DNA from: Candidatus Woesearchaeota archaeon CG10_big_fil_rev_8_21_14_0_10_45_16
GTDB lineage: Archaea > Nanobdellota > Nanobdellia > Woesearchaeales > GW2011-AR9
Direction: 5' to 3'
NCBI GenBank assembly: GCA_002762785.1
Contig: PCXY01000003.1
Location: 70,463 to 134,462 of the forward strand
Length of the DNA: 64,000 nucleotides
A program made the translations under genes and the position numbers. Positions 1-29,579 of this stretch are shown piece after piece. Below the pieces are notes generated by a model. That model had not been told where the DNA came from and did not search any database. It saw only the letters and a list, made by a program, of their open reading frames with translations. Position 1 is the stretch's first letter; the number at the start of each line of letters is the position of its first letter.

Positions 1-262
1 TAAAGGTACTGACTCAACAATGAGTGTTAGAGTTTTATCATCTGAATCTAAAATTCTATGTGTGTTTATTCCAGCATCATACAATCGTGCTGTAACATCT
101 CTTTCTCGGGAATATCTTTGGTGTGCTCTCATAATTTTTTTTCTCTCTAAAAAAGCCCAAAGAACTGGAAGAGAAAAACCACCATAGGATTTGGTAAATG
201 TACCATTATCTACATTTGTTGAGTTACTACTTACATATTTTCCTAGCCAATCAAGATTCATT
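1..262 (-). CDS. hypothetical protein, 3' part cut by window edge (start codon at 262-260)
   Basis: Open frame on the minus strand from the ATG at 262 to the window start. Not in the ORF track because it is partial. Confidence 0.3.
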
Positions 263-318
263 ATTTAGTTGGGGGAGGCATTTTCATTATAAAGTTTACC
301 TCTATTATTTGCCCGTAG

Positions 319-383
319 TGATTGAGCATAACGATGTTATGCTTCCTTAGGTTTATCCTCAGGTCGAGGCGTAGCCGAGAAGT
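319..383 (+). repeat. composite repeat copy E1 (palindrome CATAACGATGTTATG at 326-340, then hairpin, then a CGTAG motif); candidate attC-like site
   Basis: Exact 15-bp palindrome shared with five other copies. The downstream 7-bp hairpin is degenerate (CCTTAGG tttat CCTCAGG). It is followed by cgtagccgagaag and a T-run. Confidence 0.6.
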
Positions 384-555
384 TTTCAAGTTACCGTGCA
401 TAGTGCGTTGCTGTCAGAAGTCTTTAACACATTTAGTTCAGGCAAAAACAATTAGTGGTTTCATAGTAGTTAGGGGGCTCTCTCGTTTTATCAAAATTAT
501 TAGCAAATTATTTAAATTAGTTCGGTTTTTAGTATGTAAGAGGTATTCAAAGAAA

Positions 556-756
556 ATGGAAACTGACATATTAACCAAGATTCATGAAGATTTAGAGATA
601 TTAAAGCATGATATGGCTGAGATTAAAGAAGTTATCAAACTAGAACCTGAACTACGTGAAGAAGTGATTGAACAAGTTAAAGAAGCCAGAGAACGTATTG
701 TTAAGGGACAATTTGTTAGCAATGAAGATATTCTTAAAGAGTTTGATGTAGAATGA
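556..756 (+). CDS. putative antitoxin, partner of the RelE-like toxin
   Basis: Small acidic ORF whose stop overlaps the toxin start (ATGA). The ORF-track start at 322 would translate through repeat E1, so the internal Met at 556 is the more plausible start. Confidence 0.5.
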   Translation: METDILTKIHEDLEILKHDMAEIKEVIKLEPELREEVIEQVKEARERIVKGQFVSNEDILKEFDVE

Positions 757-1037
757 GCTATGAAGTTATTTGGGATGACAAAGCCCGAAATTTCTTAAGG
801 AAAATTCACAAAGATGATGCTAAAAGAATTGTAAAGAAAGTAAATAGCATTGTTGATGATCCAAGGCATTATCTTGAAACATTAGTTGAGATTAAATCCT
901 ACAAATTAAGAATAGGAGATTTTAGAGCATTAATTGATTTGGATGAAAATAAGCAAACTATTTCTGTCGTGCTGGTTGGACATAGAAAAGATGTTTACAA
1001 ATATGTTCAGAGAAGTGGTTTTAGAAGAAAGAATTGA
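753..1037 (+). CDS. relE: RelE/ParE-family toxin
   Basis: Contains KLRIGDFRALIDLDENKQTISVVLVGHRKDVY, typical of RelE/StbE toxins. Small and translationally coupled to an upstream small ORF. Confidence 0.7.
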   Translation: MSYEVIWDDKARNFLRKIHKDDAKRIVKKVNSIVDDPRHYLETLVEIKSYKLRIGDFRALIDLDENKQTISVVLVGHRKDVYKYVQRSGFRRKN

Positions 1038-1053
1038 TAATTAAAAGAAAAAA

Positions 1054-1416
1054 TTAAAGACTTTGGCGTTGTGTCAATCCTCTTCCTAAATGGTTATAAA
1101 AATTGTGTGAAGCAGATTTTTCTTCTGTTGGATCTGCAACAAGTTCAATACCAAGAGGATTAAAGACTTTTTCTTTCATCTCCCCATCAATTCTTTTGGA
1201 TGAACCAATTGGAACTATCTGATATACTTGTGCAATAACATAAGCTCCAACAACTCCGTCTGTTCCAAAAAGATTGTTGCCATTTTCATCATTATCAGAT
1301 TCATGATATGCTCTGTGGATTGTTTGTAATGTAGCCAATCTTGTTGGATCTTTTCTAATATCATCTAAACAAAATTCAGCTGCTTCTCTTGGTTTTAATT
1401 GTCTAATTTCTGGCAT
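1054..1416 (-). CDS. hypothetical protein
   Basis: 120-aa ORF convergent with the TA pair. No recognisable motif. Confidence 0.4.
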   Translation of the reverse strand: MPEIRQLKPREAAEFCLDDIRKDPTRLATLQTIHRAYHESDNDENGNNLFGTDGVVGAYVIAQVYQIVPIGSSKRIDGEMKEKVFNPLGIELVADPTEEKSASHNFYNHLGRGLTQRQSL

Positions 1417-1620
1417 TTTTTATCCTCCCTATCACCAATTGTGTGAAGATAAGAGCTACTTTAAAAATATTTGTGTTTAAAATGAGAGAGAGCCCCCATT
1501 TCAGTATTTTACATTTACTTTGTTTTTGCCGTTATAGAGTTTTACATTGTTAAAGACAGCAACGCATTAGTTTAGAGAATTTCCTACAGGATTGTTCTCG
1601 TCTAGGTAACTTGAAAATTA

Positions 1621-1676
1621 AGCATAACGATGTTATGTTTCAGGGGGTTTATCCCCCTGCAAGCGTAGCGTAGAGT
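1621..1676 (+). repeat. composite repeat copy E2 (palindrome at 1623-1637; hairpin CAGGGGGtttatCCCCCTG at 1641-1659)
   Basis: Same architecture and orientation as E1 and E3-E6, followed by caagcgtagcgtagag and a T-run. Confidence 0.65.
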
Positions 1677-1775
1677 TTTTAGATTTGAGAACAAAGATTA
1701 ATCACGAACAGAGTGAGACAAGACTTTAGGAAAAAAGCCCTAAGTTATTTAAAGTAGTTAGAGAAATGATATGTT

Positions 1776-2486
1776 ATGGTTGATAAATTATTGGCGAGAG
1801 CAACAAGTCCCACACAGTATGATTTAGATGATATCTCATGGAGTACTGAAAATGGTCTCCAATCTCCTACAAGAAAATTCTTTTTTGATTATTTATTAGG
1901 ATTTAAGGAGGAGTGGAGAGATTCTGATATTTTAGATATTGGTTGTGGGACAGGTTGGTTAATGCATTTGTTAAAGGAGAATGGAGCAAAATCTGTTGAG
2001 GGAATAGAACCATCTCATAAAAATGTTGCATATGCAGGTGATAATGGATTTGAAATTTATCATTGCGATTTAGATTCTTTTTCAGAAGATAAGAGATATG
2101 ATTTATTAATTTCCGTTATGACTTTTGGACACATAAATAATATTGATTCTTCTTTTGAGAAGATGGCAAGATTAGTTAGAGATGGGGGTGGTGTCCAGTT
2201 AATTGTTCCTGCATATGATTATTTTAAAAGAGAAAGAGATGGTTGTAAGGTTGAATTTGAAGAATTAAATCCAGAGGAATATGTTGTTCAAGTAACTCGT
2301 GAGCAAGGAACAATTGCTGAAATTGTGAGAAAAGTGGAGTTTTATGAACGTGCCGCTGAACGAGTTGGTTTAACAGTTGAAGATTCTATTCCGATGGTTC
2401 CAACAGATTCATTGATGAGAGATTCTCCGAGACATGCAACATTTAAAGGTCAGCCAATAACATATCTAGTGAGACTGCGAAAATAG
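1776..2486 (+). CDS. class I SAM-dependent methyltransferase
   Basis: Motif I LDIGCGTGWL and the overall Rossmann methyltransferase pattern. Confidence 0.7.
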   Translation: MVDKLLARATSPTQYDLDDISWSTENGLQSPTRKFFFDYLLGFKEEWRDSDILDIGCGTGWLMHLLKENGAKSVEGIEPSHKNVAYAGDNGFEIYHCDLDSFSEDKRYDLLISVMTFGHINNIDSSFEKMARLVRDGGGVQLIVPAYDYFKRERDGCKVEFEELNPEEYVVQVTREQGTIAEIVRKVEFYERAAERVGLTVEDSIPMVPTDSLMRDSPRHATFKGQPITYLVRLRK

Positions 2487-2519
2487 GGCTTTTTTCTACT
2501 TTCTCAAATCTAAAAATTA

Positions 2520-2583
2520 AACATAACGATGTTATGCTTCGGGAGGTTCACCCTCCCGCAAGGAAACGGAGTTTGAGCGAGTG
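2520..2583 (+). repeat. composite repeat copy E3 (palindrome at 2522-2536; hairpin CGGGAGGttcacCCTCCCG at 2541-2559)
   Basis: Same 15-bp palindrome. The hairpin stem differs from E2/E5/E6 but stays fully complementary, which is a compensatory change. Confidence 0.65.
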
Positions 2584-2690
2584 TTGAAAACCAGCCGTTA
2601 GGCTGTAAATGGTTTTTCTCGCTCATTCCCGGTTTCCGCAGAGTCTGACCTTGAAATTTTGGACATATTGGCTTTTCCTTGAAATAATTC

Positions 2691-2782
2691 CCACCACTGA
2701 CGCTGGTGAGCCGGGGGATGCCCCCTCCGGGGTGGCGAACGAGGACTCACGAAGGGAGTCCGACAGCCGTCAGTAGTGGTGG
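2691..2782 (+). other. GC-rich structured element (candidate small ncRNA) in an ORF-less interval between repeats E3 and E4
   Basis: The outer inverted repeat CCACCACTGACG / CGTCAGTAGTGGTGG encloses two internal hairpins, GGGGGatgCCCCC and GGACTCacgaagggGAGTCC. The surroundings are AT-rich and no ORF of 60 aa or more is present. Confidence 0.35.
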
Positions 2783-2830
2783 ACGCATAATTATTTGATG
2801 GAAAATAACCAAAATTTAATGGTCATATTA

Positions 2831-2888
2831 AGCATAACGATGTTATGTCCCCCAGACTTTACGTCTGGGTGCGAACGTAGTGAGCAAG
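2831..2888 (+). repeat. composite repeat copy E4 (palindrome at 2833-2847; hairpin CCCAGACtttacGTCTGGG at 2851-2869; cgaacgtagtgagcaag)
   Basis: Same palindrome. Third independent stem sequence, same 7-bp-stem plus 5-nt TT-loop geometry. Confidence 0.65.
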
Positions 2889-2958
2889 TATTTTCCAACC
2901 GTGCAGAGAACTAGCGCCATATTTCCTAATCACTTGTAGTTAAAGGGGACAATTTTTT

Positions 2959-3963
2959 TTAGTGCTTGACTATTTCTAATTTTGCTTTTTTATTTTTGGC
3001 AAGAAGTTTGGCAGTTCCACCAATAGGAAATGTAATCATTGGATTAGTATGGCCAAAATCAACATTAGCAATAACAGGTAAGTGGTTTAATTCTTTTTTT
3101 GTTTTGATTATTTTTGTAAGTAATTCTTTAGTCATCTTTGTGGCTTTTTGAAATCTTCCTATTACTATTCCCTGCACTTTTTTAAATTCTGGTTGATGGA
3201 TGATTGATTGGATATCTCTGTCAATAGTGGCGACATGTGCTTCATAATCGTCTTCTAAGAAAAGAATACTACCCTTGATATTTGGTATGTATTCAGTTCC
3301 ATGAAGTAATTGAAGAGTGCATAAATTCCCTCCAATTATTTTTCCAGAAGCTTCGCCCTCATTAATTATCCAGAAACCATCGTTTTTCATAAATTCACGA
3401 TTTTCCTGATCATTTGCCCAGAGATCATCACTCCATTCTTTAGAAGGCAAGACTTCAAATGATTCATCAGAAAATAAGCATTTTTTGAAATAGTCTAATG
3501 AATAGTCAAATCCTCTCTTTTCCCCAAATGAGAAAAAGTGCAGACCAGAATATGTTACTAACCCTGTTTTTGCATAGATTGCATTTGCAAGAGCAGTAAT
3601 ATCTGAATAGCCACAAAGTATTTTAGGATTATTTTTGATTAAGTCATAATCTAAATATCGTAAAAGTTGATTAGAATTAAACCCGCCAATTACCGTTATG
3701 ATTAATTTTATTGATTTATCTTTAAACGCTTCATGGAGGTCATCTACTCGTTTTTTAATTGTTGAGGAATTGAATTCATCTATTTCGTTTACGTGTTCCG
3801 AAAAACTGACTTTAAGTCCTAATTCTTCTAAGCGTTTAATGGCTATTTTTTGTAATTCTTCATTAAGCCAGGGCATAGCCAAACTTCTTGCTGGTGTTAT
3901 TATACGAACGCCATCGCCAGATTTTAACTTTGCTGGAATCATACTTGTTAATGAACGTAGCAA
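2959..3963 (-). CDS. LD-carboxypeptidase (peptidase S66, LdcA/MccF-like)
   Basis: CGYSDITAL matches the GYSD serine motif of S66 peptidases, and the length of about 330 aa fits. Confidence 0.75.
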   Translation of the reverse strand: MLRSLTSMIPAKLKSGDGVRIITPARSLAMPWLNEELQKIAIKRLEELGLKVSFSEHVNEIDEFNSSTIKKRVDDLHEAFKDKSIKLIITVIGGFNSNQLLRYLDYDLIKNNPKILCGYSDITALANAIYAKTGLVTYSGLHFFSFGEKRGFDYSLDYFKKCLFSDESFEVLPSKEWSDDLWANDQENREFMKNDGFWIINEGEASGKIIGGNLCTLQLLHGTEYIPNIKGSILFLEDDYEAHVATIDRDIQSIIHQPEFKKVQGIVIGRFQKATKMTKELLTKIIKTKKELNHLPVIANVDFGHTNPMITFPIGGTAKLLAKNKKAKLEIVKH

Positions 3964-4097
3964 ATATATAAAATGTGCGGTAAAAATAGAGATTTAGAAA
4001 TTGTCCCCTACATTTGGTTTTACATTGTGATTAAGGCGCTAGTTTAGATTGTTAAAGTTAGCGTAAGCGTAGAATTGTTCTAGGTTGGAAAATATTG

Positions 4098-4158
4098 GAC
4101 ATAACGATGTTATGTTTCAGGGGGTTTATCCCCCTGCAAGACACGTAGTGTCGCAGAG
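4098..4158 (+). repeat. composite repeat copy E5 (palindrome at 4100-4114; hairpin at 4118-4136; acacgtagtgtcgcagag)
   Basis: Identical 19-nt hairpin to E2 and E6. The 3' mini-hairpin is GACACgtaGTGTC. An orphan GTAGTG-CATAAC half-site lies at 4187-4201. Confidence 0.65.
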
Positions 4159-4201
4159 GTTTTTGTTGTTGTATCAACCAGTTTAACGCTGTAGTGCATA
4201 A

Positions 4202-5077
4202 CTAATAATCTACGTGAACATGACCGTTTGATGCTATAATGTAACCAGCATATCTAATGAGAACTGCTTTAATATCTACATTTAATTCATGGAAGAGGTA
4301 ACTTCCGATTGTATTTTCATGGCTGAAATAAATGTTGATTGTTTTTTCTGATAAAGCACTCATTAGATTTCTTATTTCATTAGAAGTAGCTTCAGATAAG
4401 GGAGATTCTGTAATCCATTTTCTGAAATGTTCACGTAAAATTCTCAACTTTCTCCTATTTAGTGGGCTCCCATCTTCTAGTGTTTCTTTTAGTTCTGGAT
4501 ACCTCTCTTTCATATCTTTAATTTTTGAACCGCTTCCAGATAATGAACTGTTTTGTCTTGGTCGTGTTAAACGAGCATTAGAGTTTCTTGATAAATAAGA
4601 ATAAGAAAGATCAGCAAACAATCTTGTTCTTTTGCTGTCTGAATTATAGAAATTTACAGTTACATTATCATAAGCTTCCAAAAATTGTTTGAGAAATTTA
4701 TTAAATCTCCAAACTTGAATCATTCCTCTCATAGTTAAATTTTTTCCAGGAAGTTTCCGATAAGATGCCATTAATGGCTCAGGATGACGAACTAAAATAT
4801 TTACACCAGAAGAATTAAAAATTTTAATTTCATTTGTTAATTTTTGATAAGTTTCTTTCGTTGTTGATTCTTGACAATTTTTGATTATATTCAACAATGA
4901 GTTTTTCTGCTCCGATGAGAGATGTTTCTCAAATTTTTTGTAATAACCTAAAAGAAACTTCTCTAAACTTTTCATTCCAGCTTCAATAATTTTGATATCT
5001 TTCTCTTTATGAGAATTATTTAAGAGTTTTCTTCCTGAAGATTTCGTCAACGCAAGGAATGAACTAATATTCATCAT
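4202..5077 (-). CDS. hypothetical protein (weak sulfotransferase-like features)
   Basis: 291-aa ORF. The VRHPEP..SY stretch is faintly sulfotransferase-like and is not relied on. Confidence 0.35.
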   Translation of the reverse strand: MMNISSFLALTKSSGRKLLNNSHKEKDIKIIEAGMKSLEKFLLGYYKKFEKHLSSEQKNSLLNIIKNCQESTTKETYQKLTNEIKIFNSSGVNILVRHPEPLMASYRKLPGKNLTMRGMIQVWRFNKFLKQFLEAYDNVTVNFYNSDSKRTRLFADLSYSYLSRNSNARLTRPRQNSSLSGSGSKIKDMKERYPELKETLEDGSPLNRRKLRILREHFRKWITESPLSEATSNEIRNLMSALSEKTINIYFSHENTIGSYLFHELNVDIKAVLIRYAGYIIASNGHVHVDY

Positions 5078-5112
5078 AAGCTTTAAATAGATCTTATTTT
5101 CTTATAAAACTT

Positions 5113-5673
5113 ATGTTAATTGTTATAGCTGGATTAATTGGAGCAGGAAAATCAACAATTGCTAGAGAACTTTCTAAAAAACTTTCTAAAAAACTTTCTA
5201 AAAAACTTTCTATTCCATTATATAGTATAGATGATGACAAAAAGAGAGTTTACAAGACTCACCCTCAATATGAACATTTCTTGAAGAATCACATCCCATT
5301 TCCGGATGAGACTAGAAAAAAAACTTTTGATGCTTCATTGAAGGGTCTTAGAAAGTTAGCAGAAGAGCATAAACATGCAATTGTTGAAGAAACATTTCAT
5401 AAAAAAATTTTAAGAGATCCATTTTTTGAAGAGGCTAAGAAAATTTTCGGGGGAATGATTTTGATTCTTGCAAAAGTAGATGATAAATTAGTGAAAGAGA
5501 GGTTAGATAAGAGAGAGAAAGATGAAGACCATATGGTTGGATATGGGATGTATCTATCATTTAAGAAACAGTGGGAGCCATTTGAGAAAGTTGATTATGA
5601 ATTTGTTAATGAAGGAAATTTTGATGAAAATATGAATCAGTTGGTGAATTTCCTGAGAGATAAGTTAGATTAG
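5113..5673 (+). CDS. P-loop NTPase, putative nucleotide/nucleoside kinase (AAA_33-like)
   Basis: Walker A GLIGAGKST at the N-terminus. Contains a [12 protein letters not shown] repeat encoded by a 12-bp tandem repeat at 5176-5215. Confidence 0.55.
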   Translation: MLIVIAGLIGAGKSTIARELSKKLSKKLSKKLSIPLYSIDDDKKRVYKTHPQYEHFLKNHIPFPDETRKKTFDASLKGLRKLAEEHKHAIVEETFHKKILRDPFFEEAKKIFGGMILILAKVDDKLVKERLDKREKDEDHMVGYGMYLSFKKQWEPFEKVDYEFVNEGNFDENMNQLVNFLRDKLD

Positions 5674-5750
5674 TTATTTCTTTATGCACGGAAGCGTTAG
5701 GTTTGGGATTTAGCGTTAGCGTAGAATCCATTTACAACAACAAAAACTTA

Positions 5751-5809
5751 AACATAACGATGTTATGCCTCAGGGGGTTTATCCCCCTGCAAGCACGTAG
5801 TGCGCAGAG
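5751..5809 (+). repeat. composite repeat copy E6 (palindrome at 5753-5767; hairpin at 5771-5789; caagcacgtagtgcgcagag)
   Basis: Same architecture. The 3' mini-hairpin is GCACgtaGTGC. Confidence 0.65.
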
Positions 5810-5955
5810 TTGGATTCTCACGTTTTTAGAGGGGGGCGTCAGTTATGACATTAGTTAGTTTTTAGAAAGGGGTCGCCAAATAAAATTTTTGTTACTTGTA
5901 AGTAAATTACAGAAACATTTAAATATTTGCATAGATTTCTTTTATAATACAATGA

Positions 5956-7041
5956 TTGGCAAAGAACGTCAGGAAAGGGATTATATTCCTAATTGGTCAA
6001 GATTATTCTAGCTATAGCTTTAAAGATTTAAGATATGCATCTTCTAATGAAAATTTACAGGACATCTATAATAGAGTTGAAGGCATAAAAGGAAATGGCT
6101 TGTTTGTAATTGGTGGATTTGATCAAGTTGCTTCTTTGTTAGGACATTCCGAACTAGATTTAGCACATTTAGTTGATAACAATCTTACTGCTGTTGAATA
6201 TGCTAGATTCCGCTTAGCACTGACACAAATTTGTGATACTAGATTTGAATATGTTGGTCGACTGATATCACGGAGAGTAAAAGGAATTTTTAATAATATC
6301 TCTTCTTTGAGAAATTTTTATTCTTCTAGAGAGACAGCAAGTGTTAGATTGTTCAACTTTTATAGAACACTATATGATGAACGCCTTACAAGGCTAAGAA
6401 AATTACTTGATTTAAGTCTGTGTTCTGATACAATAGAAGAAAAAATGCTTTATTTTGGGCAATTTAGGATGGAATTTGAAAAAGAAGCAGGGAATATAAG
6501 GGGTATAGAATGGAGAAGAGAATCTCTGGAAGAAGATTTCTGTAGATATGAACAATTTTTAGAAGAAAGAGAAATCGCTTATGATTCTCTGTTTGCTGAA
6601 GAAACAGCTAAATTGCTTTGTGAAAATTTTGGAATTAGTAAAAATCTACTAGAAGAAACAATCTTGAGCGAATATTTTGAAAGTAAATTGAACTGGGGTG
6701 AAAATGATATGGTCGCTGGAAGGAGATTTTGGAGTTTTATTGAATCTAATAAGGACCATTGGCTTTCATCAGACGCCTATTTCGAGAGAGTAAAATCAAT
6801 GTACAGAGAAGAAAGAATTAAATTTTCTCAGCTAGACTTGACCAATGAAGATATCTCGCTTAATCTTTTTGGAGATTTGTCTTTAGTTTATTTATCTAAT
6901 ATTCATGAATGGGTAAAAGTTGAATTAGGAGAACTAATTAAATGTTTATGTTTAAATGAGTTAGGTGTTAATGAACACACAATTTTTCTTTACACAACAA
7001 CAAAAGGAAAGGGTAAATGTAAAATGGCGACCCCGTTATAG
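5956..7041 (+). CDS. hypothetical protein
   Basis: 361-aa ORF. A TATA-like element (cttttataata) sits about 10 bp upstream of the ATG, consistent with an archaeal leaderless transcript. Confidence 0.45.
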   Translation: MAKNVRKGIIFLIGQDYSSYSFKDLRYASSNENLQDIYNRVEGIKGNGLFVIGGFDQVASLLGHSELDLAHLVDNNLTAVEYARFRLALTQICDTRFEYVGRLISRRVKGIFNNISSLRNFYSSRETASVRLFNFYRTLYDERLTRLRKLLDLSLCSDTIEEKMLYFGQFRMEFEKEAGNIRGIEWRRESLEEDFCRYEQFLEEREIAYDSLFAEETAKLLCENFGISKNLLEETILSEYFESKLNWGENDMVAGRRFWSFIESNKDHWLSSDAYFERVKSMYREERIKFSQLDLTNEDISLNLFGDLSLVYLSNIHEWVKVELGELIKCLCLNELGVNEHTIFLYTTTKGKGKCKMATPL

Positions 7042-7123
7042 TTTTAGTTTTTATCTTCTCATAGAGAAGCGTTTTATACATAGCCCCACTCGTTTTTTTT
7101 AGTTTACGTGAGAATCCAATTAG

Positions 7124-7217
7124 GCATAACTCTTTATATGCTGAAATGGGCTGTAATGGGGGAATTTTGGGGATACAAGGGCTGTCCTGAAGCCCATAAA
7201 ACAATAAAGAGTTATGT
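7124..7217 (+). repeat. attC-like long imperfect hairpin E7 (gCATAAC-TCTTTAT ... ATAAAGA-GTTATGt)
   Basis: The 13-bp terminal inverted repeat CATAACTCTTTAT / ATAAAGAGTTATG starts with R''-like GCATAAC and ends with R'-like GTTATGT. An inner stem ATGGGCT/AGCCCAT is separated from it by unpaired bases, as in folded attC sites. Confidence 0.55.
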
Positions 7218-7417
7218 GCCACTATAACCATCATAGTAAGAAATGACTTAGAATGACCTAGAATGTCCTGAAAAAATCTAAATTCACTTTCTAAATTCAC
7301 CTAAAAAAACTTAACCACTTAACATCTTAACAACTTAAACTGACCTGAAATAACATCGATGGACGTATCAGCTTCAACATGGCTGATCTATGATCCCTCT
7401 GCACTGGTCAGCTTCTA
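7218..7417 (+). promoter_or_regulatory. attI-like / promoter region upstream of the recombinase gene, rich in short direct repeats
   Basis: TTAAC repeats with 8-bp period (four copies, 7311-7340). CTAAATTCAC occurs twice (7278-7300). TAGAATG occurs twice (7248-7266). The region sits between the last attC-like site and the recombinase start. Confidence 0.35.
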
Positions 7418-8446
7418 TTGTCCAGTGTGAGAGCGCTTCTACCTGCGAAATTTGGCAGGTTCAGCGGTTGGAGGATGAGCACTGGACACACTGGTCAGGT
7501 CCGGGTAAGATATATAAATCATAAAAGTCATGATAATGACATGGATATTAACATGGATGTTGCTGGCCTTATCACAAAAGAGGGATGGCGTCTGGGAAGA
7601 AGCCCCAGGACTATCAAGACCTACATCTACGTTGTAGAGAAATTCTTAAGGACGTATCATAAAGAGCCGCATCAGGTTACCAAACGGGACATTGAGAACC
7701 ATCTTCTTCGGCTGCAAGAAAGGAACAGCTCAGGCAATACGATGAATGTCCATCTCAACGCTCTTAAGTTCTTTTATGAAAGGGTCCTTAAGAAAAAGCT
7801 GACGGTCAATATCGAGTTTGCTAAAGTGCGGAAGAGTTTGCCCACGGTCTTGAGCAAAGAAGAGACTTCTGCCTTGTTTTCTGCCATCTCTAACCCTAAA
7901 CAGCAGTTGATGGTCAAGCTGCTCTATGCCAGCGGGATGCGGGTCAGTGAACTTGCTTCCTTGCGTGTGCGTGATCTTGAATTCAACAATAACTATGGAT
8001 GGGTCAGGAACGGCAAAGGTGGTAAGGATAGATTATTCATTATCGCCAAAAAGTTGAAGAACGAGATCCTGGCCAGGATATCTCAAAACAAACTGCATTC
8101 TGCTGACTGGCTATTTCCTGGGTATAACAGCAACCACATCAGCCCCAGTTCCATCCGCACTATCATCAAGACCGCTTCCCTGAAAGCTGGTATCAGCAAA
8201 AATGTTCATCCCCACACTTTGCGCCACTCTTTCGCCACCCATCTGATCGAAAATGGCTACGCGGTGACGGAAGTGCAGCCTCTCCTTGGCCATGGTTCGA
8301 TCAACACGACCATGATCTATCTTCATATCGCATCACCACAATTGTTAAAAGTAGAAAGTCCTCTTGATTCGTTAGGGACAGCAGCGAGAGAAGTAAGAAT
8401 AGTAAAGACGGTGGGGGTACGATCTGATCCTCTGGATGCTGCCTGA
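7418..8446 (+). CDS. tyrosine site-specific recombinase, integron-integrase-like (XerC/XerD/IntI family)
   Basis: Conserved blocks match IntI closely: LLYASGMRVSELASLRVRDL, GKGGKDR, HPHTLRHSFATHL, LLGHGSINTTMIYLHI and a C-terminal SPLDSL. The true start may be Met42 or Met46, at 7541 or 7553. Confidence 0.8.
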   Translation: MSSVRALLPAKFGRFSGWRMSTGHTGQVRVRYINHKSHDNDMDINMDVAGLITKEGWRLGRSPRTIKTYIYVVEKFLRTYHKEPHQVTKRDIENHLLRLQERNSSGNTMNVHLNALKFFYERVLKKKLTVNIEFAKVRKSLPTVLSKEETSALFSAISNPKQQLMVKLLYASGMRVSELASLRVRDLEFNNNYGWVRNGKGGKDRLFIIAKKLKNEILARISQNKLHSADWLFPGYNSNHISPSSIRTIIKTASLKAGISKNVHPHTLRHSFATHLIENGYAVTEVQPLLGHGSINTTMIYLHIASPQLLKVESPLDSLGTAAREVRIVKTVGVRSDPLDAA

Positions 8447-8463
8447 TCCCGGGGATAATTCTC

Positions 8464-9687
8464 ATGAACATCCGCCGCGTCAGATACAAAGACATTGAAC
8501 AGGTTCCTCAGCTTCGCATAAACAAACGTTTCAAGCAGGATTTCCAAGGCTCGGCGCCTGCTCCTTTTGTCGGCCGTTATGGTTATCCTAATGTAAACTT
8601 AGGTATTCTCAGCCCGCAATTTGTCGGTGACGTCTCTGAATATGATTCTCCCCGGTTATGGAGCAAGGAAAGCTTCCAGATCGGTCAGGTGGCCAGCATC
8701 CGTTACGGCCTGGTGAATTCCCGTACTAAATGGAGCATCAAAGATCTCTATAAAGATCAGCTGCAATCCGGAAAACGCTTCTTTGAAACCTGTCAGGAAG
8801 TTGGCATGGCCACTAAAGCCGCAGAGATCGAGGTGGCGCTCAAGAAACCGCCTAAGCTGGACTTCAAGCCAGAGAAAGAGATCATCCCCTACGGGCCTGC
8901 TTCTGAGATCCTCAAAGCCAGGATAGCCGGCAGTCCGCGAGTTGATACCAGGGTAGAGAAAGTGGTCTATGATACTGATCTGAAAGCTGCTTCTGGGGTT
9001 GTCAATCTTTATAAGAAAGGATTTGAAGAGAATTACCTGACTCGGCTGCTGTCAGTAGGAACTTTAGGATTGCAAGAAAGAAGAAAGCTGGTGCCGACCA
9101 GATGGAGTATCACCGCCGTCGATGACACCATCGGTAAAGAACTGATAAATGAGGTCAAACAGTTTCCTGTGGGGGAGTATCGCGCTTATTTCGGCGGCGG
9201 CTGGGGCAATTTCTATCTTCTGTTGTTCTTTCCGGAAGTATGGAGCTATGAACTGTTTGAGACGTATCTTCACCCTTCCGGAACCGCAGCTACCAATCCC
9301 TGGTCAAAACAAGGTTATATGTATTCGACCGATCATGAAAGCTATGTTGGTCGCAAGAATTACGCTGAAGAGACCGCCGGCGGCTATTATGCCTGCCGTA
9401 TCTCCGTAGCAGAGAAGATGAAAGAACTTAAGCGGCAAGGATCGTGCCTGGCCTTACGTTTCATCACCCCTGAATATAACATCCCTCTAGGGGTCTGGGT
9501 CTGCCGGCAGGCTACCCGCAAGGCTCTCGAGAAACAGCCTCTCGTGTTTGATTCAGAAGAACTGATGATGGCCTTTGCCAGATCGTTGATAGAACGGAAG
9601 TTTGGTTTCAAGCTTGATTTTCTGCTGAAAGAGTCGCAGCTGCTGAAACAGAAGAAAGAACAGACCAAGCTGGCGGAGTTTGTCTGA
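8464..9687 (+). CDS. conserved hypothetical protein, possibly Nre-family (DUF650/DUF651-like)
   Basis: 407-aa ORF. The Nre assignment is from memory of the family and is unverified. Confidence 0.3.
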   Translation: MNIRRVRYKDIEQVPQLRINKRFKQDFQGSAPAPFVGRYGYPNVNLGILSPQFVGDVSEYDSPRLWSKESFQIGQVASIRYGLVNSRTKWSIKDLYKDQLQSGKRFFETCQEVGMATKAAEIEVALKKPPKLDFKPEKEIIPYGPASEILKARIAGSPRVDTRVEKVVYDTDLKAASGVVNLYKKGFEENYLTRLLSVGTLGLQERRKLVPTRWSITAVDDTIGKELINEVKQFPVGEYRAYFGGGWGNFYLLLFFPEVWSYELFETYLHPSGTAATNPWSKQGYMYSTDHESYVGRKNYAEETAGGYYACRISVAEKMKELKRQGSCLALRFITPEYNIPLGVWVCRQATRKALEKQPLVFDSEELMMAFARSLIERKFGFKLDFLLKESQLLKQKKEQTKLAEFV

Positions 9688-29340: not shown

Positions 29341-29441
29341 GTGGGGGTAGCAAAGCCTGGTCAAATGCGCAGGACTTAAGACAACTTTGAAAGATATCCT
29401 GTCCTTTAGTAGGTTCGAGGGTTCAAATCCCTTCCCCCACA
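29341..29441 (+). tRNA. tRNA-Leu (anticodon UAA) with a 15-nt intron after position 37
   Basis: Acceptor stem GTGGGGG/CCCCCAC. Anticodon stem CAGGA/TCCTG. Loop is CTTAAG, then the intron, then A. Long variable arm. T-arm GAGGG-TTCAAAT-CCCTT. A TATA box lies upstream. Confidence 0.8.
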
Positions 29442-29493: not shown

Positions 29494-29579
29494 GCCCCTG
29501 TGGCCTAGCGGTATGGCGTTACCTTGGTATACATCATACAAAGAGGTAAAGGTCCCGAGTTCAAGTCTCGGCAGGGGCT
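29494..29579 (+). tRNA. tRNA-Thr (anticodon GGU) with a 14-nt intron after position 37
   Basis: Acceptor stem GCCCCTG/CAGGGGC. Anticodon stem TTACC/GGTAA. Loop is TTGGTA, then the intron, then A. T-arm CCGAG-TTCAAGT-CTCGG. Confidence 0.8.

Follow-up and report, generated by a model that had tools for sequence, protein, structure and literature searches.

Small genetic units bounded by the sites of tyrosine recombinases are known in several forms. Integrative mobile elements that exploit Xer (IMEXs), such as CTX-phi, TLC-phi, VGJ-phi, and the gonococcal island, build tandem arrays at bacterial dif, and CTX-phi relies on a single strand exchange where the sites share one arm, its attachment region being palindromic and foldable. 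The IMEXs known so far measure several kb and are phages, satellites, or islands of bacteria that carry genes for replication or morphogenesis. The pdif modules of Acinetobacter plasmids are small resistance or toxin–antitoxin modules residing in varied contexts and bounded by Xer-type sites, namely inversely oriented XerC/D and XerD/C. Integron cassettes end in attC, an imperfect hairpin of 57–141 nt with the layout R''(RYYYAAC)-L''...L'-R'(GTTRRRY) and extrahelical bases, and integrons with canonical IntI and attC have been reported from Archaea as well (Ghaly et al., 2022; PMC9668308). Archaeal XerA serves dimer resolution at dif (Cortez et al., 2010; PMC2958812), a site located upstream of the xerA operon in Haloferax and Halobacterium (PMC11840125), and it acts on dif in vitro with no need for cofactors (PMC2958812; PMC3646895); XerA figures only as chromosome resolvase in a review of archaeal tyrosine recombinases, which does not contain the term IMEX (PMC8371274). 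As far as could be traced, Xer-exploiting mobile elements have not been described in Archaea, and no description of a XerA-linked cassette array was found within an incomplete coverage of the literature. Here, we analyze a stretch of 64,000 nt from contig PCXY01000003.1 of a Woesearchaeota archaeon (hereafter the window; all coordinates are window positions), in which six co-oriented copies of a short element, restricted to 318–5810, separate AT-rich accessory genes 5′ of a tyrosine recombinase gene. An earlier note, made from the letters of the window, took this layout for an integron or, as a fallback, for an undescribed integron-like platform. It is the fallback that the evidence supports: the array resembles an integron and an IMEX array in its working and belongs to neither family, and we consider it fairly probable that the region, as an analogue of both, represents small mobile cassettes that the host XerA has inserted at a dif-like site.

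With integrons the locus shares a tyrosine recombinase gene beside a special site, and a co-oriented array whose cassettes are short, hold one gene in most cases, and serve very diverse accessory functions, toxin–antitoxin pairs being frequent; pairing within the sites is conserved more than their sequence, the same cassettes occur in different arrays, and the newest insertion is presumably the one nearest to the recombinase. It departs from them in that the recombinase is XerA-type without the IntI-specific domain, the sites combine a double-strand-type inverted-repeat core with hairpins instead of forming attC, variable complementary segments are divided between the two ends of the integrated cassette, and xerA shares its strand with the sites, its transcription leading away from the array. 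Integron cassettes are mostly promoterless and co-oriented, with expression from Pc. Since array genes here face both ways, a single Pc promoter cannot serve the cassettes. Like IMEXs, the cassettes have no recombinase of their own, those examined encoding no XerA-like one, carry a dif-like site, would integrate at the Xer target of the host, and accumulate in tandem; a chromosomal-type site is regenerated at one junction (a non-cassette right arm is kept in nine lineages), and the cassette and chromosomal sites share one arm while differing in the center and the other arm. Unlike IMEXs, they are gene cassettes of about 1 kb, many per array, in an archaeal host with a single XerA in the 64 kb of genome covered and no FtsK. 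Archaeal XerA/dif offers the same recombinase family and an inverted-repeat TAA...TTA site directly 5′ of xerA, but here there are many sites instead of one, with N5 instead of N6-8 spacing, hairpin appendages, and accessory genes in between. The pdif modules are likewise small accessory-gene units bounded by Xer-type sites in various contexts, whereas the sites described here are co-oriented, chromosomal, tied to xerA, and furnished with conserved hairpins and cassette-end palindromes.

The recombinase and its linkage to the array

The gene in question is the following.
7541..8446, plus strand: xerA, XerA-type tyrosine recombinase, 301 aa, the presumed catalyst.

By its sequence the protein is classified as XerA-type. 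It scores 235.5 bits against NCBIfam XerA_Arch (NF040815), above the cutoff of 220, while the integron integrase model TIGR02249 gives 216 bits, below its cutoff of 265, and matches in two stretches. The best match in the Protein Data Bank (PDB), P. abyssi XerA (4a8e; 141.5 bits), is aligned in one stretch over residues 19–269. The alignment with V. cholerae IntI4 (VchIntIA; 137.3 bits) falls into two pieces, since VchIntIA residues 184–240, constituting the IntI-specific additional domain around patch III, have no counterpart, and query residues 183–198 bridge the gap. The initial likening of the enzyme to integron integrases is understandable, but the assignment goes to XerA: the XerA cutoff is passed, that of TIGR02249 is failed, and the IntI-specific domain is missing. 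Integron integrases are nevertheless close relatives of Xer, and XerA and VchIntIA score nearly equally against the window protein. As for the gene borders, the open reading frame (ORF) first taken for the whole gene (7418–8446) is real and opens at 7418, but the start codon is most likely ATG 7541, because in the other assemblies compared the gene callers picked the same codon, homologues mostly have about 260–300 aa, and a conserved promoter block sits inside 7418–7540.

The closest homologues of the recombinase come from metagenome-assembled genomes (MAGs) of Woesearchaeota/Nanoarchaeota. In the window and in two related loci (L117 and L121; such loci are designated here by L numbers) nreA follows 3′ of xerA, and this shared order implies that xerA sits in conserved core synteny. 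The same contig carries archaeal EF-1alpha, S10, Spt5/SecE, and NreA, so that its archaeal assignment, already made from the first three of these among other genes, holds.

The comparative data are metagenome assemblies throughout. In all distinct XerA lineages where both sites and gene are visible (11/11: window, L016, L019, L020, L043, L055, L081, L111, L117, L119, and L121), the sites are located 5′ of xerA and on its strand; with four arrangements possible, the chance of the same one in all 11 is about 10^-6. The layout noticed initially, i.e., recombinase, attI-like site, and array of cassettes bounded by palindromes, therefore recurs in 11 recombinase lineages. A tblastn search detected no XerA-like genes inside cassettes, such genes being found only downstream of arrays. 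From linkage, orientation, and similarity of the arms we infer that XerA would catalyze the recombination.

Cassette sites and cassette-end palindromes

The element contains a 15-nt core, CATAACGATGTTATG, invariant in 6/6 window copies (327, 1623, 2522, 2833, 4100, and 5753). For a core search at 3 mismatches, 1.6 chance matches were expected, and 12 matches were reached in 0/100 shuffles. A covariance model built from related sites returned exactly six sites at E<=1 over the whole 64 kb and no further copies in the other 56 kb of the window. The original count of six co-oriented elements is thus upheld, while their length, set at ~58 bp, is corrected by the model to about 66 nt. Scattering of the element over unrelated genomic contexts, named in the earlier note as an outcome that would refute its reading, is not what is seen: the copies are clustered near the array with none elsewhere in 64 kb, and long contigs (930, 596, and 485 kb) give a single stretch of exact matches each. 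The AT-richness perceived by eye for 0.3–7.3 kb corresponds to GC of 0.31–0.39 over 1–7000 against 0.40–0.51 across most of the remaining window, where two late 1-kb bins dip to ~0.37. A dif serving dimer resolution is single on its chromosome and placed in the termination zone; GC skew has no turning point at the locus (64 kb of genome covered).

Accessory genes of the array are mutually unrelated, comprising a ParE/RelE toxin with a small DUF2683-like partner, a SAM methyltransferase, an S66 LD-carboxypeptidase, a P-loop kinase, a DUF7790 protein, and two family-less ORFs, five of these genes being on the site strand and three opposite. Pfam confirmed the RelE pair, methyltransferase, LD-carboxypeptidase, and P-loop kinase proposed previously. 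The array is composed as follows (bits refer to the covariance model).

1..326, no strand: end of cassette 0; GC 0.33; the array continues past the left edge of the window.
318..383, plus strand: inter-cassette site 1; 67.4 bits; core 327-341 exact; by its fold, hairpin 2 at 345-363, hairpin 3 with GTA loop, and AGT end.
342..1622, no strand: cassette 1; Pfam matches; three ORFs, i.e., DUF2683-like antitoxin (556-756, plus), ParE/RelE toxin (753-1037, plus), and a 120-aa ORF (1054-1416, minus); terminal inverted repeat, AGTTTTCAAGTTACC (381-395) pairing with GGTAACTTGAAAATT (1605-1619).
1614..1676, plus strand: inter-cassette site 2; 68.5 bits; core 1623-1637.
1638..2521, no strand: cassette 2; SAM-dependent methyltransferase (1776-2486, plus; Pfam Methyltransf_23/25/11); inverted repeat, TTTTTAGATTTGAGA pairing with TCTCAAATCTAAAAA.
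2513..2643, plus strand: inter-cassette site 3; 59.8 bits (match 2513-2582); core 2522-2536.
2644..2832, no strand: cassette 3, a mini-cassette; no ORF of at least 60 aa; GC-rich palindrome at about 2691-2782; weak end inverted repeat, 2646-2669 pairing with 2802-2825.
2824..2889, plus strand: inter-cassette site 4; 74.3 bits; core 2833-2847.
2848..4099, no strand: cassette 4; LD-carboxypeptidase (peptidase S66; 2959-3963, minus; Pfam Peptidase_S66 and S66C); inverted repeat, TATTTTCCAACC pairing with GGTTGGAAAATA.
4091..4159, plus strand: inter-cassette site 5; 66.3 bits; core 4100-4114.
4115..5752, no strand: cassette 5; 291-aa ORF (4202-5077, minus) and P-loop kinase (5113-5673, plus; Pfam AAA_18 and AAA_33); inverted repeat, GTTTTTGTTGTTGT pairing with ACAACAACAAAAAC.
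5744..5810, plus strand: inter-cassette site 6; 69.1 bits; core 5753-5767.
5768..7124, no strand: cassette 6; DUF7790 protein (5956-7041, plus; Pfam match); inverted repeat, TTGGATTCTCACG pairing with CGTGAGAATCCAA.

The left arm of site 1 is of cassette type (GATTGAG-CATAAC), implying that this site is not the left chromosomal junction. Candidates for such junctions in other loci (L016 3761, L019 57, and L121 5530) were considered for rebuilding the empty site and set aside as too few and too unlike. Site 3 is distinguished by the enlarged third hairpin (2562-2637; fold z -6.0), and a site related to it is found in L093 (275); the palindrome of cassette 3 has no Rfam match.

In a collection of 201 sites from 110 related loci, the site reads ATT-RRR-CATAAC-GAT-GTTATG-YYY-C and continues with a 7-bp hairpin with TTYAY loop (hairpin 2), a short third hairpin, usually with G(T)TA loop and shoulders rich in G/A, and AGT. 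The core is a dif-like inverted repeat, CATAAC-GAT-GTTATG, invariant in the window copies, and the R/Y positions beside it change independently of each other, so that the arms look like a protein-binding inverted repeat and not like a selected hairpin; the possibility that the core palindrome itself is selected as a hairpin was ruled out on this ground and because RNAalifold does not call one there. What RNAalifold supports is solely the separate 7-bp hairpin. It was analyzed on 91 unique copies, which contain 59 distinct stems with compensatory double changes at 7/7 pairs and the TTYAY loop kept. Wobble-type pairs (17 G.T vs 9 A.C) are rare and without clear strand bias, which favors pairing of DNA over that of RNA; an attempt to use this bias for distinguishing top-strand, bottom-strand, and RNA folding was dropped as too few cases were available. 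Several loci (L021 1735, L036 286, L080 54, L087 133, L009 1022, and L038 5426) have the 7-bp hairpin split by ~45–60 nt inserted in the TTTA loop (..TTTAAGTGAGCCAGACTAA...CTGGCGAACGTG..), and an inverted repeat belonging to the insert itself points to a small element lodged there.

Dif of E. coli is GGTGCGCATAA-TGTATA-TTATGTTAAAT, and the cassette-site core resembles Xer sites in its inverted CATAA...TTATG arms. The spacing is ..CATAA-CGATG-TTATG.. (TAA-N5-TTA) in cassette sites and CATAAC-TCT-TTATATG in the terminal site next to xerA. If the locus were a genuine integron, with IntI, attI, and attC hairpins at the cassette ends, their folded bottom strands being what recombines, the overall order of recombinase, special site, and cassette array would be explained, along with the IntI-directed scores (TIGR02249, 216 bits; VchIntIA, 137 bits), and IntI/attC integrons do exist in archaeal MAGs including those of Nanoarchaeota (PMC9668308). 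We regard this as very improbable, since the protein falls below the IntI cutoff of 265 and above that of XerA with the IntI-specific domain missing, AAC/GTT boxes are only 3 nt apart, L boxes are absent, flanking positions do not covary, and variable complementary parts are split to opposite cassette ends. Strict integron identity, as proposed at the outset, is thus contradicted by the XerA type of the recombinase, an outcome that the earlier note had itself named as refuting, by sites without the R''-L''...L'-R' layout, and by cassette genes facing both ways.

At the ends of a cassette, the 12–16 nt after AGT of one site and the 12–16 nt before ATT of the next are reverse complements of each other; this holds in 5/6 window cassettes, the pair of cassette 3 being weaker. 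An exact complementary run of at least 9 nt was detected in 73/110 adjacent site pairs; of 3000 between-locus controls, 1.1% had one, and the two flanks of a single site stayed at background. The end stem of 64 unique cassettes comprises 14–18 bp with a sequence different in every cassette; its positions 2–12 are almost all Watson–Crick paired without wobble, and all four pair types are used at variable positions. Further inverted-repeat patches occur deeper inside 24/80 cassettes. Circle junctions of five window cassettes were reconstructed in silico assuming excision between the two flanking cores, and all of them fold four-armed, with energies between -22 and -32 kcal/mol and z between -7.5 and -10.3 (cassette 2, -9.4 at -25.9 kcal/mol; cassette 4, -7.6; cassette 5, -10.3; cassette 6, -9.9). 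Such a junction can be read as a single palindrome, X'-ATT-RRR-CATAAC / GAT / GTTATG-YYY-[hairpins]-AGT-X, with a branched insert of ~45 nt on one side. Folded or extruded DNA is probably the form in which the hairpins and the end palindrome are active, and, by analogy with attC or CTX-phage attP, they may control strand choice or direction.

Just within the left end repeat a semi-conserved CCGTRCATAGA(N)..TGNCNCC is located (window 384-420 and 2890-2910, and many loci). In L062 (700-960), the end and start of a RelE-type cassette, 78–90% identical to window cassette 1, are joined via one site (X'-site-X), which may be a circle junction or a tandem copy. Two contigs, L071 and L083, were examined as possible circles and rejected, as their terminal overlaps of 58–59 nt are alternative assembly paths between mini-cassette copies.

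Covariation in hairpin 2 could be expected from a transcription element, such as a terminator, insulator, or structured RNA, with cassette variation produced by homologous recombination between repeats. T-runs often following AGT (AGTTTTT) and A-runs preceding ATT would block read-through both ways, and mixed orientation of cassettes calls for promoters of their own. However, Rfam gave no match to the elements, either at the gathering threshold over the whole window or at E<=1 over 1-8500; wobble pairs are rare, with none at the variable end-repeat positions; neither a hybrid half-site beside xerA nor the cassette-end palindromes acquire any role; and homology breaks within a core of 15–24 nt, which is short for homologous recombination. 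This version appears quite improbable.

Terminal site, cassettes shared between arrays, and their gene content

The space between the last cassette and xerA is occupied by the following features.
7118..7141, plus strand: terminal (attI/dif-like) site, AATTAGG-CATAAC-TCT-TTATATGC.
7124..7217, no strand: terminal palindrome, made of the terminal site (7125-7140) plus a second, inverted copy (7197-7212 read as reverse complement, CATAACTCTTTATTGT).
7242..7338, plus strand: direct repeats found by Tandem Repeats Finder, between the terminal site and xerA.
7480..7523, plus strand: conserved putative xerA promoter/operator block, ACTGGACACACTGGTCAGG...ATATATAAAT, from the alignment across lineages.

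The terminal site is a hybrid, joining a cassette-type left arm to a different center and a chromosomal-type right arm, without hairpins 2 and 3, and it is preceded by the end repeat of cassette 6. An equivalent site is present in eight other lineages (L016, L019, L020, L055, L081, L111, L117, and L119), thus being recognizable in 9/11 XerA lineages at 150–420 nt 5′ of the xerA start codon. The long attC-like hairpin initially assigned to 7124–7217 exists as an inverted repeat, but its fold is weak (z -1.7 to -2.6) and it contains a half-site, not the full element. The inverted second copy follows the terminal site in the window, L055, and L111; comparable palindromes were found in L055 (z -4.7), L111, and L119, and none in L117. 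The direct repeats suspected at 7218–7417 were verified as AATGACCTAG x2.8 (7242-7269) and AACTTAAC x3.9, i.e., four tandem copies (7308-7338). The latter unit includes the left-arm hexamer CTTAAC, and the repeats are candidate accessory binding sites; this segment is window-specific and represents an insertion relative to other lineages. The conserved upstream block, present in 8/9 aligned sequences, looks like an operator plus promoter by its position and conservation, and xerA may be regulated through it. Conserved ACTGGWCA repeats (window 7402-7435) are followed by the ATATATAAAT box directly 5′ of the xerA start codon; both are also found in L055, L111, L117, L119, L081, L020, and L016, with proteins 55–67% identical.

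Variation at cassette boundaries, suggested earlier as an informative comparison, is indeed observed: homologous cassettes occur in different arrays, and their homology ends at the site, with breaks at -12 to 0 of the core when approached from the right and at +12 to +16 from the left. Both ends of window cassette 6 find their match in L059, where this cassette lies inside an array, and homology stops at 7130, right after CATAAC. The start of the methyltransferase cassette (cassette 2) has a different upstream neighbor in L064, starts of cassette 1-type (RelE) follow five different hairpin modules (L035, L040, L062, L023, and L110), and one 58-nt hairpin module precedes unrelated cassettes. 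A crossover at AG/TT, comparable to integron G/TT, was tried as the main one and discarded because terminal sites keep the left arm only to CATAAC.

The exact 24-nt site pattern was found in 7 archaeal MAG contigs and 96 metagenome stretches and had no match in viral contigs, providing no evidence of virus-borne cassettes. Sites within a locus are co-oriented; 6 “mixed” loci are mostly owed to weak 3-mismatch matches, with the exception of L075, where exact-core matches occupy both strands. Several long contigs stop inside the array or just 5′ of xerA, as repeats would predict. ORF-less mini-cassettes of 81 nt (L009 686/767 and 2603/2684) and ~175 nt (L071 and L083) recur within arrays, and those of L071 and L083 flank alternative assembly paths.

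Recurrence of the ORF-less units (81 nt in L009; ~175 nt in L071/L083) is also what one might expect if the elements were palindromes resembling miniature inverted-repeat transposable elements (MITE) or repetitive extragenic palindromes (REP), or targets of an unlinked enzyme, interspersed in a hypervariable island with xerA as a mere neighbor at a dif hotspot. The sites are compound palindromes, hairpin modules seem exchanged independently of cassettes, nested insertions are present in the hairpin-2 loop, and most arrays are on contigs without xerA in view, all of which fits this explanation. Nevertheless, we consider it unlikely, taking into account the same side and strand in 11/11 XerA lineages, the cassette left arm in the terminal site, the Xer-like core, the strictly clustered and co-oriented copies, and the fact that no transposase was noticed among the best 25 of 95 cassette families.

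Since numerous contigs have an end that falls on a site or no more than ~100 nt away from one (in one other assembly, contig L006 begins within site 6), chimeric joining at repeats might have simulated an array that does not exist. This seems extremely improbable: independent JGI and ENA assemblies keep the window order with 100% protein identity over the cassettes covered, a Logan contig is in agreement from the terminal site to xerA inclusive, chimeras would not produce end repeats that pair within a cassette, as they do here in each, and the same architecture is present in NCBI MAG contigs of 45–385 kb.

The 92 unique cassettes have a median length of 1.0 kb and mostly a single ORF. They contain 154 ORFs, which make up 144 families; gene orientation is mixed in this set as in the window, 92 ORFs being on the site strand and 62 opposite. 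Among the Pfam assignments, methyltransferases, TrmB/HTH regulators, Fic, PIN, ParE, and HEPN/nucleotidyltransferase are abundant, and MFS transporters and a DNA methylase are also present; no integrase or transposase was noticed among the best 25 of 95 families. In the loci checked (window 1-7000, L020 6858-9843, and L121 5530-9850), GC of the array remains at 0.32–0.36, while that of flanking or host DNA varies from ~0.33 to ~0.45, and this steadiness suggests a shared low-GC pool of cassettes.

Proposed route of integration and side observations

The dif-like site just 5′ of the host xerA would be the anchor, and XerA would recombine a circular cassette with this xerA-proximal site. Integration would split the cassette site, sending its right arm, the hairpins, and one palindrome half to the left end of the cassette, and the other palindrome half with the left arm to the right end. 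A hybrid site with the chromosomal right arm would thereby be regenerated beside xerA for the next insertion, and its regeneration each time implies that repeated insertion builds a co-oriented array. As cassette and terminal sites share only the left arm and adjoining bases, integration may use a single strand exchange, which would parallel CTX-phi or attI x attC. In the reverse direction, core x core recombination between neighboring, fully homologous sites would release a cassette as a circle, which brings the palindrome halves together and allows the site to adopt the four-armed fold. Existence of the circles and entry at the terminal site are likewise inferred.

Several observations do not fit this route easily. 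The TAA-N5-TTA spacing of the core is shorter than that of published archaeal dif, for which an 11-6-11 layout with TAA-N6-8-TTA is reported (PMC11840125; PMC2958812), which sets the site apart from a canonical dif. Homology also breaks, in a second class of cases, at the end of hairpin 3, and this is not predicted by a single crossover in the core. Palindromes at cassette ends are more perfect than selection for folding needs, hinting at a copying or genesis mechanism of another kind. Most arrays reside on short contigs with no xerA in view, and some of the apparent shuffling could stem from chimeric joins at repeats, although independent assemblies of the window population agree and thus counter the latter worry.

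In its widest form, the proposal of cassette integration by the host XerA depicts an undescribed archaeal gene-capture system in which XerA and a dif-like site stand for integrase and attI, minimal Xer-exploiting cassettes carry an attachment palindrome of ~95 nt forming a four-way junction, and a shared low-GC pool supplies the cassettes; the system, apparently widespread in DPANN archaea of the Woesearchaeota/Nanoarchaeota type, would either have converged on integrons or be related to the Xer-like ancestor of these. This full version is advanced tentatively. If true, a Xer-based cassette array would be a living analogue of an intermediate in the origin of integrons or an independent invention, its cassettes would be, as far as could be traced, the first archaeal Xer-exploiting elements, and genome-reduced DPANN symbionts would have a concrete route for the exchange of accessory genes (toxin–antitoxin pairs, methyltransferases, regulators, and transporters). 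The site may possibly be useful as a compact, structure-assisted recombination module. Given short, defined sites and cofactor-free activity of XerA on dif, the proposal is directly testable with oligonucleotides.

Six TrmB-like proteins are encoded in cassettes, and in three loci the xerA-proximal cassette gene is a TrmB-family regulator (L117 144-854, L121 8982-9716, and L122 516-1250). In T. kodakarensis TrmBL2 marks the boundary of the domain surrounding dif (PMC11840125), and the agreement between the two facts may be a coincidence. In the kinase gene of cassette 5, an in-frame 12-nt tandem repeat (5154-5213) encoding (LSKK)x4 is placed directly after the P-loop. ARAGORN reported no tRNA genes in the window; Rfam gave two, at 29341-29441 and 29494-29579, both longer than the 71-position tRNA model, so that introns are possible.

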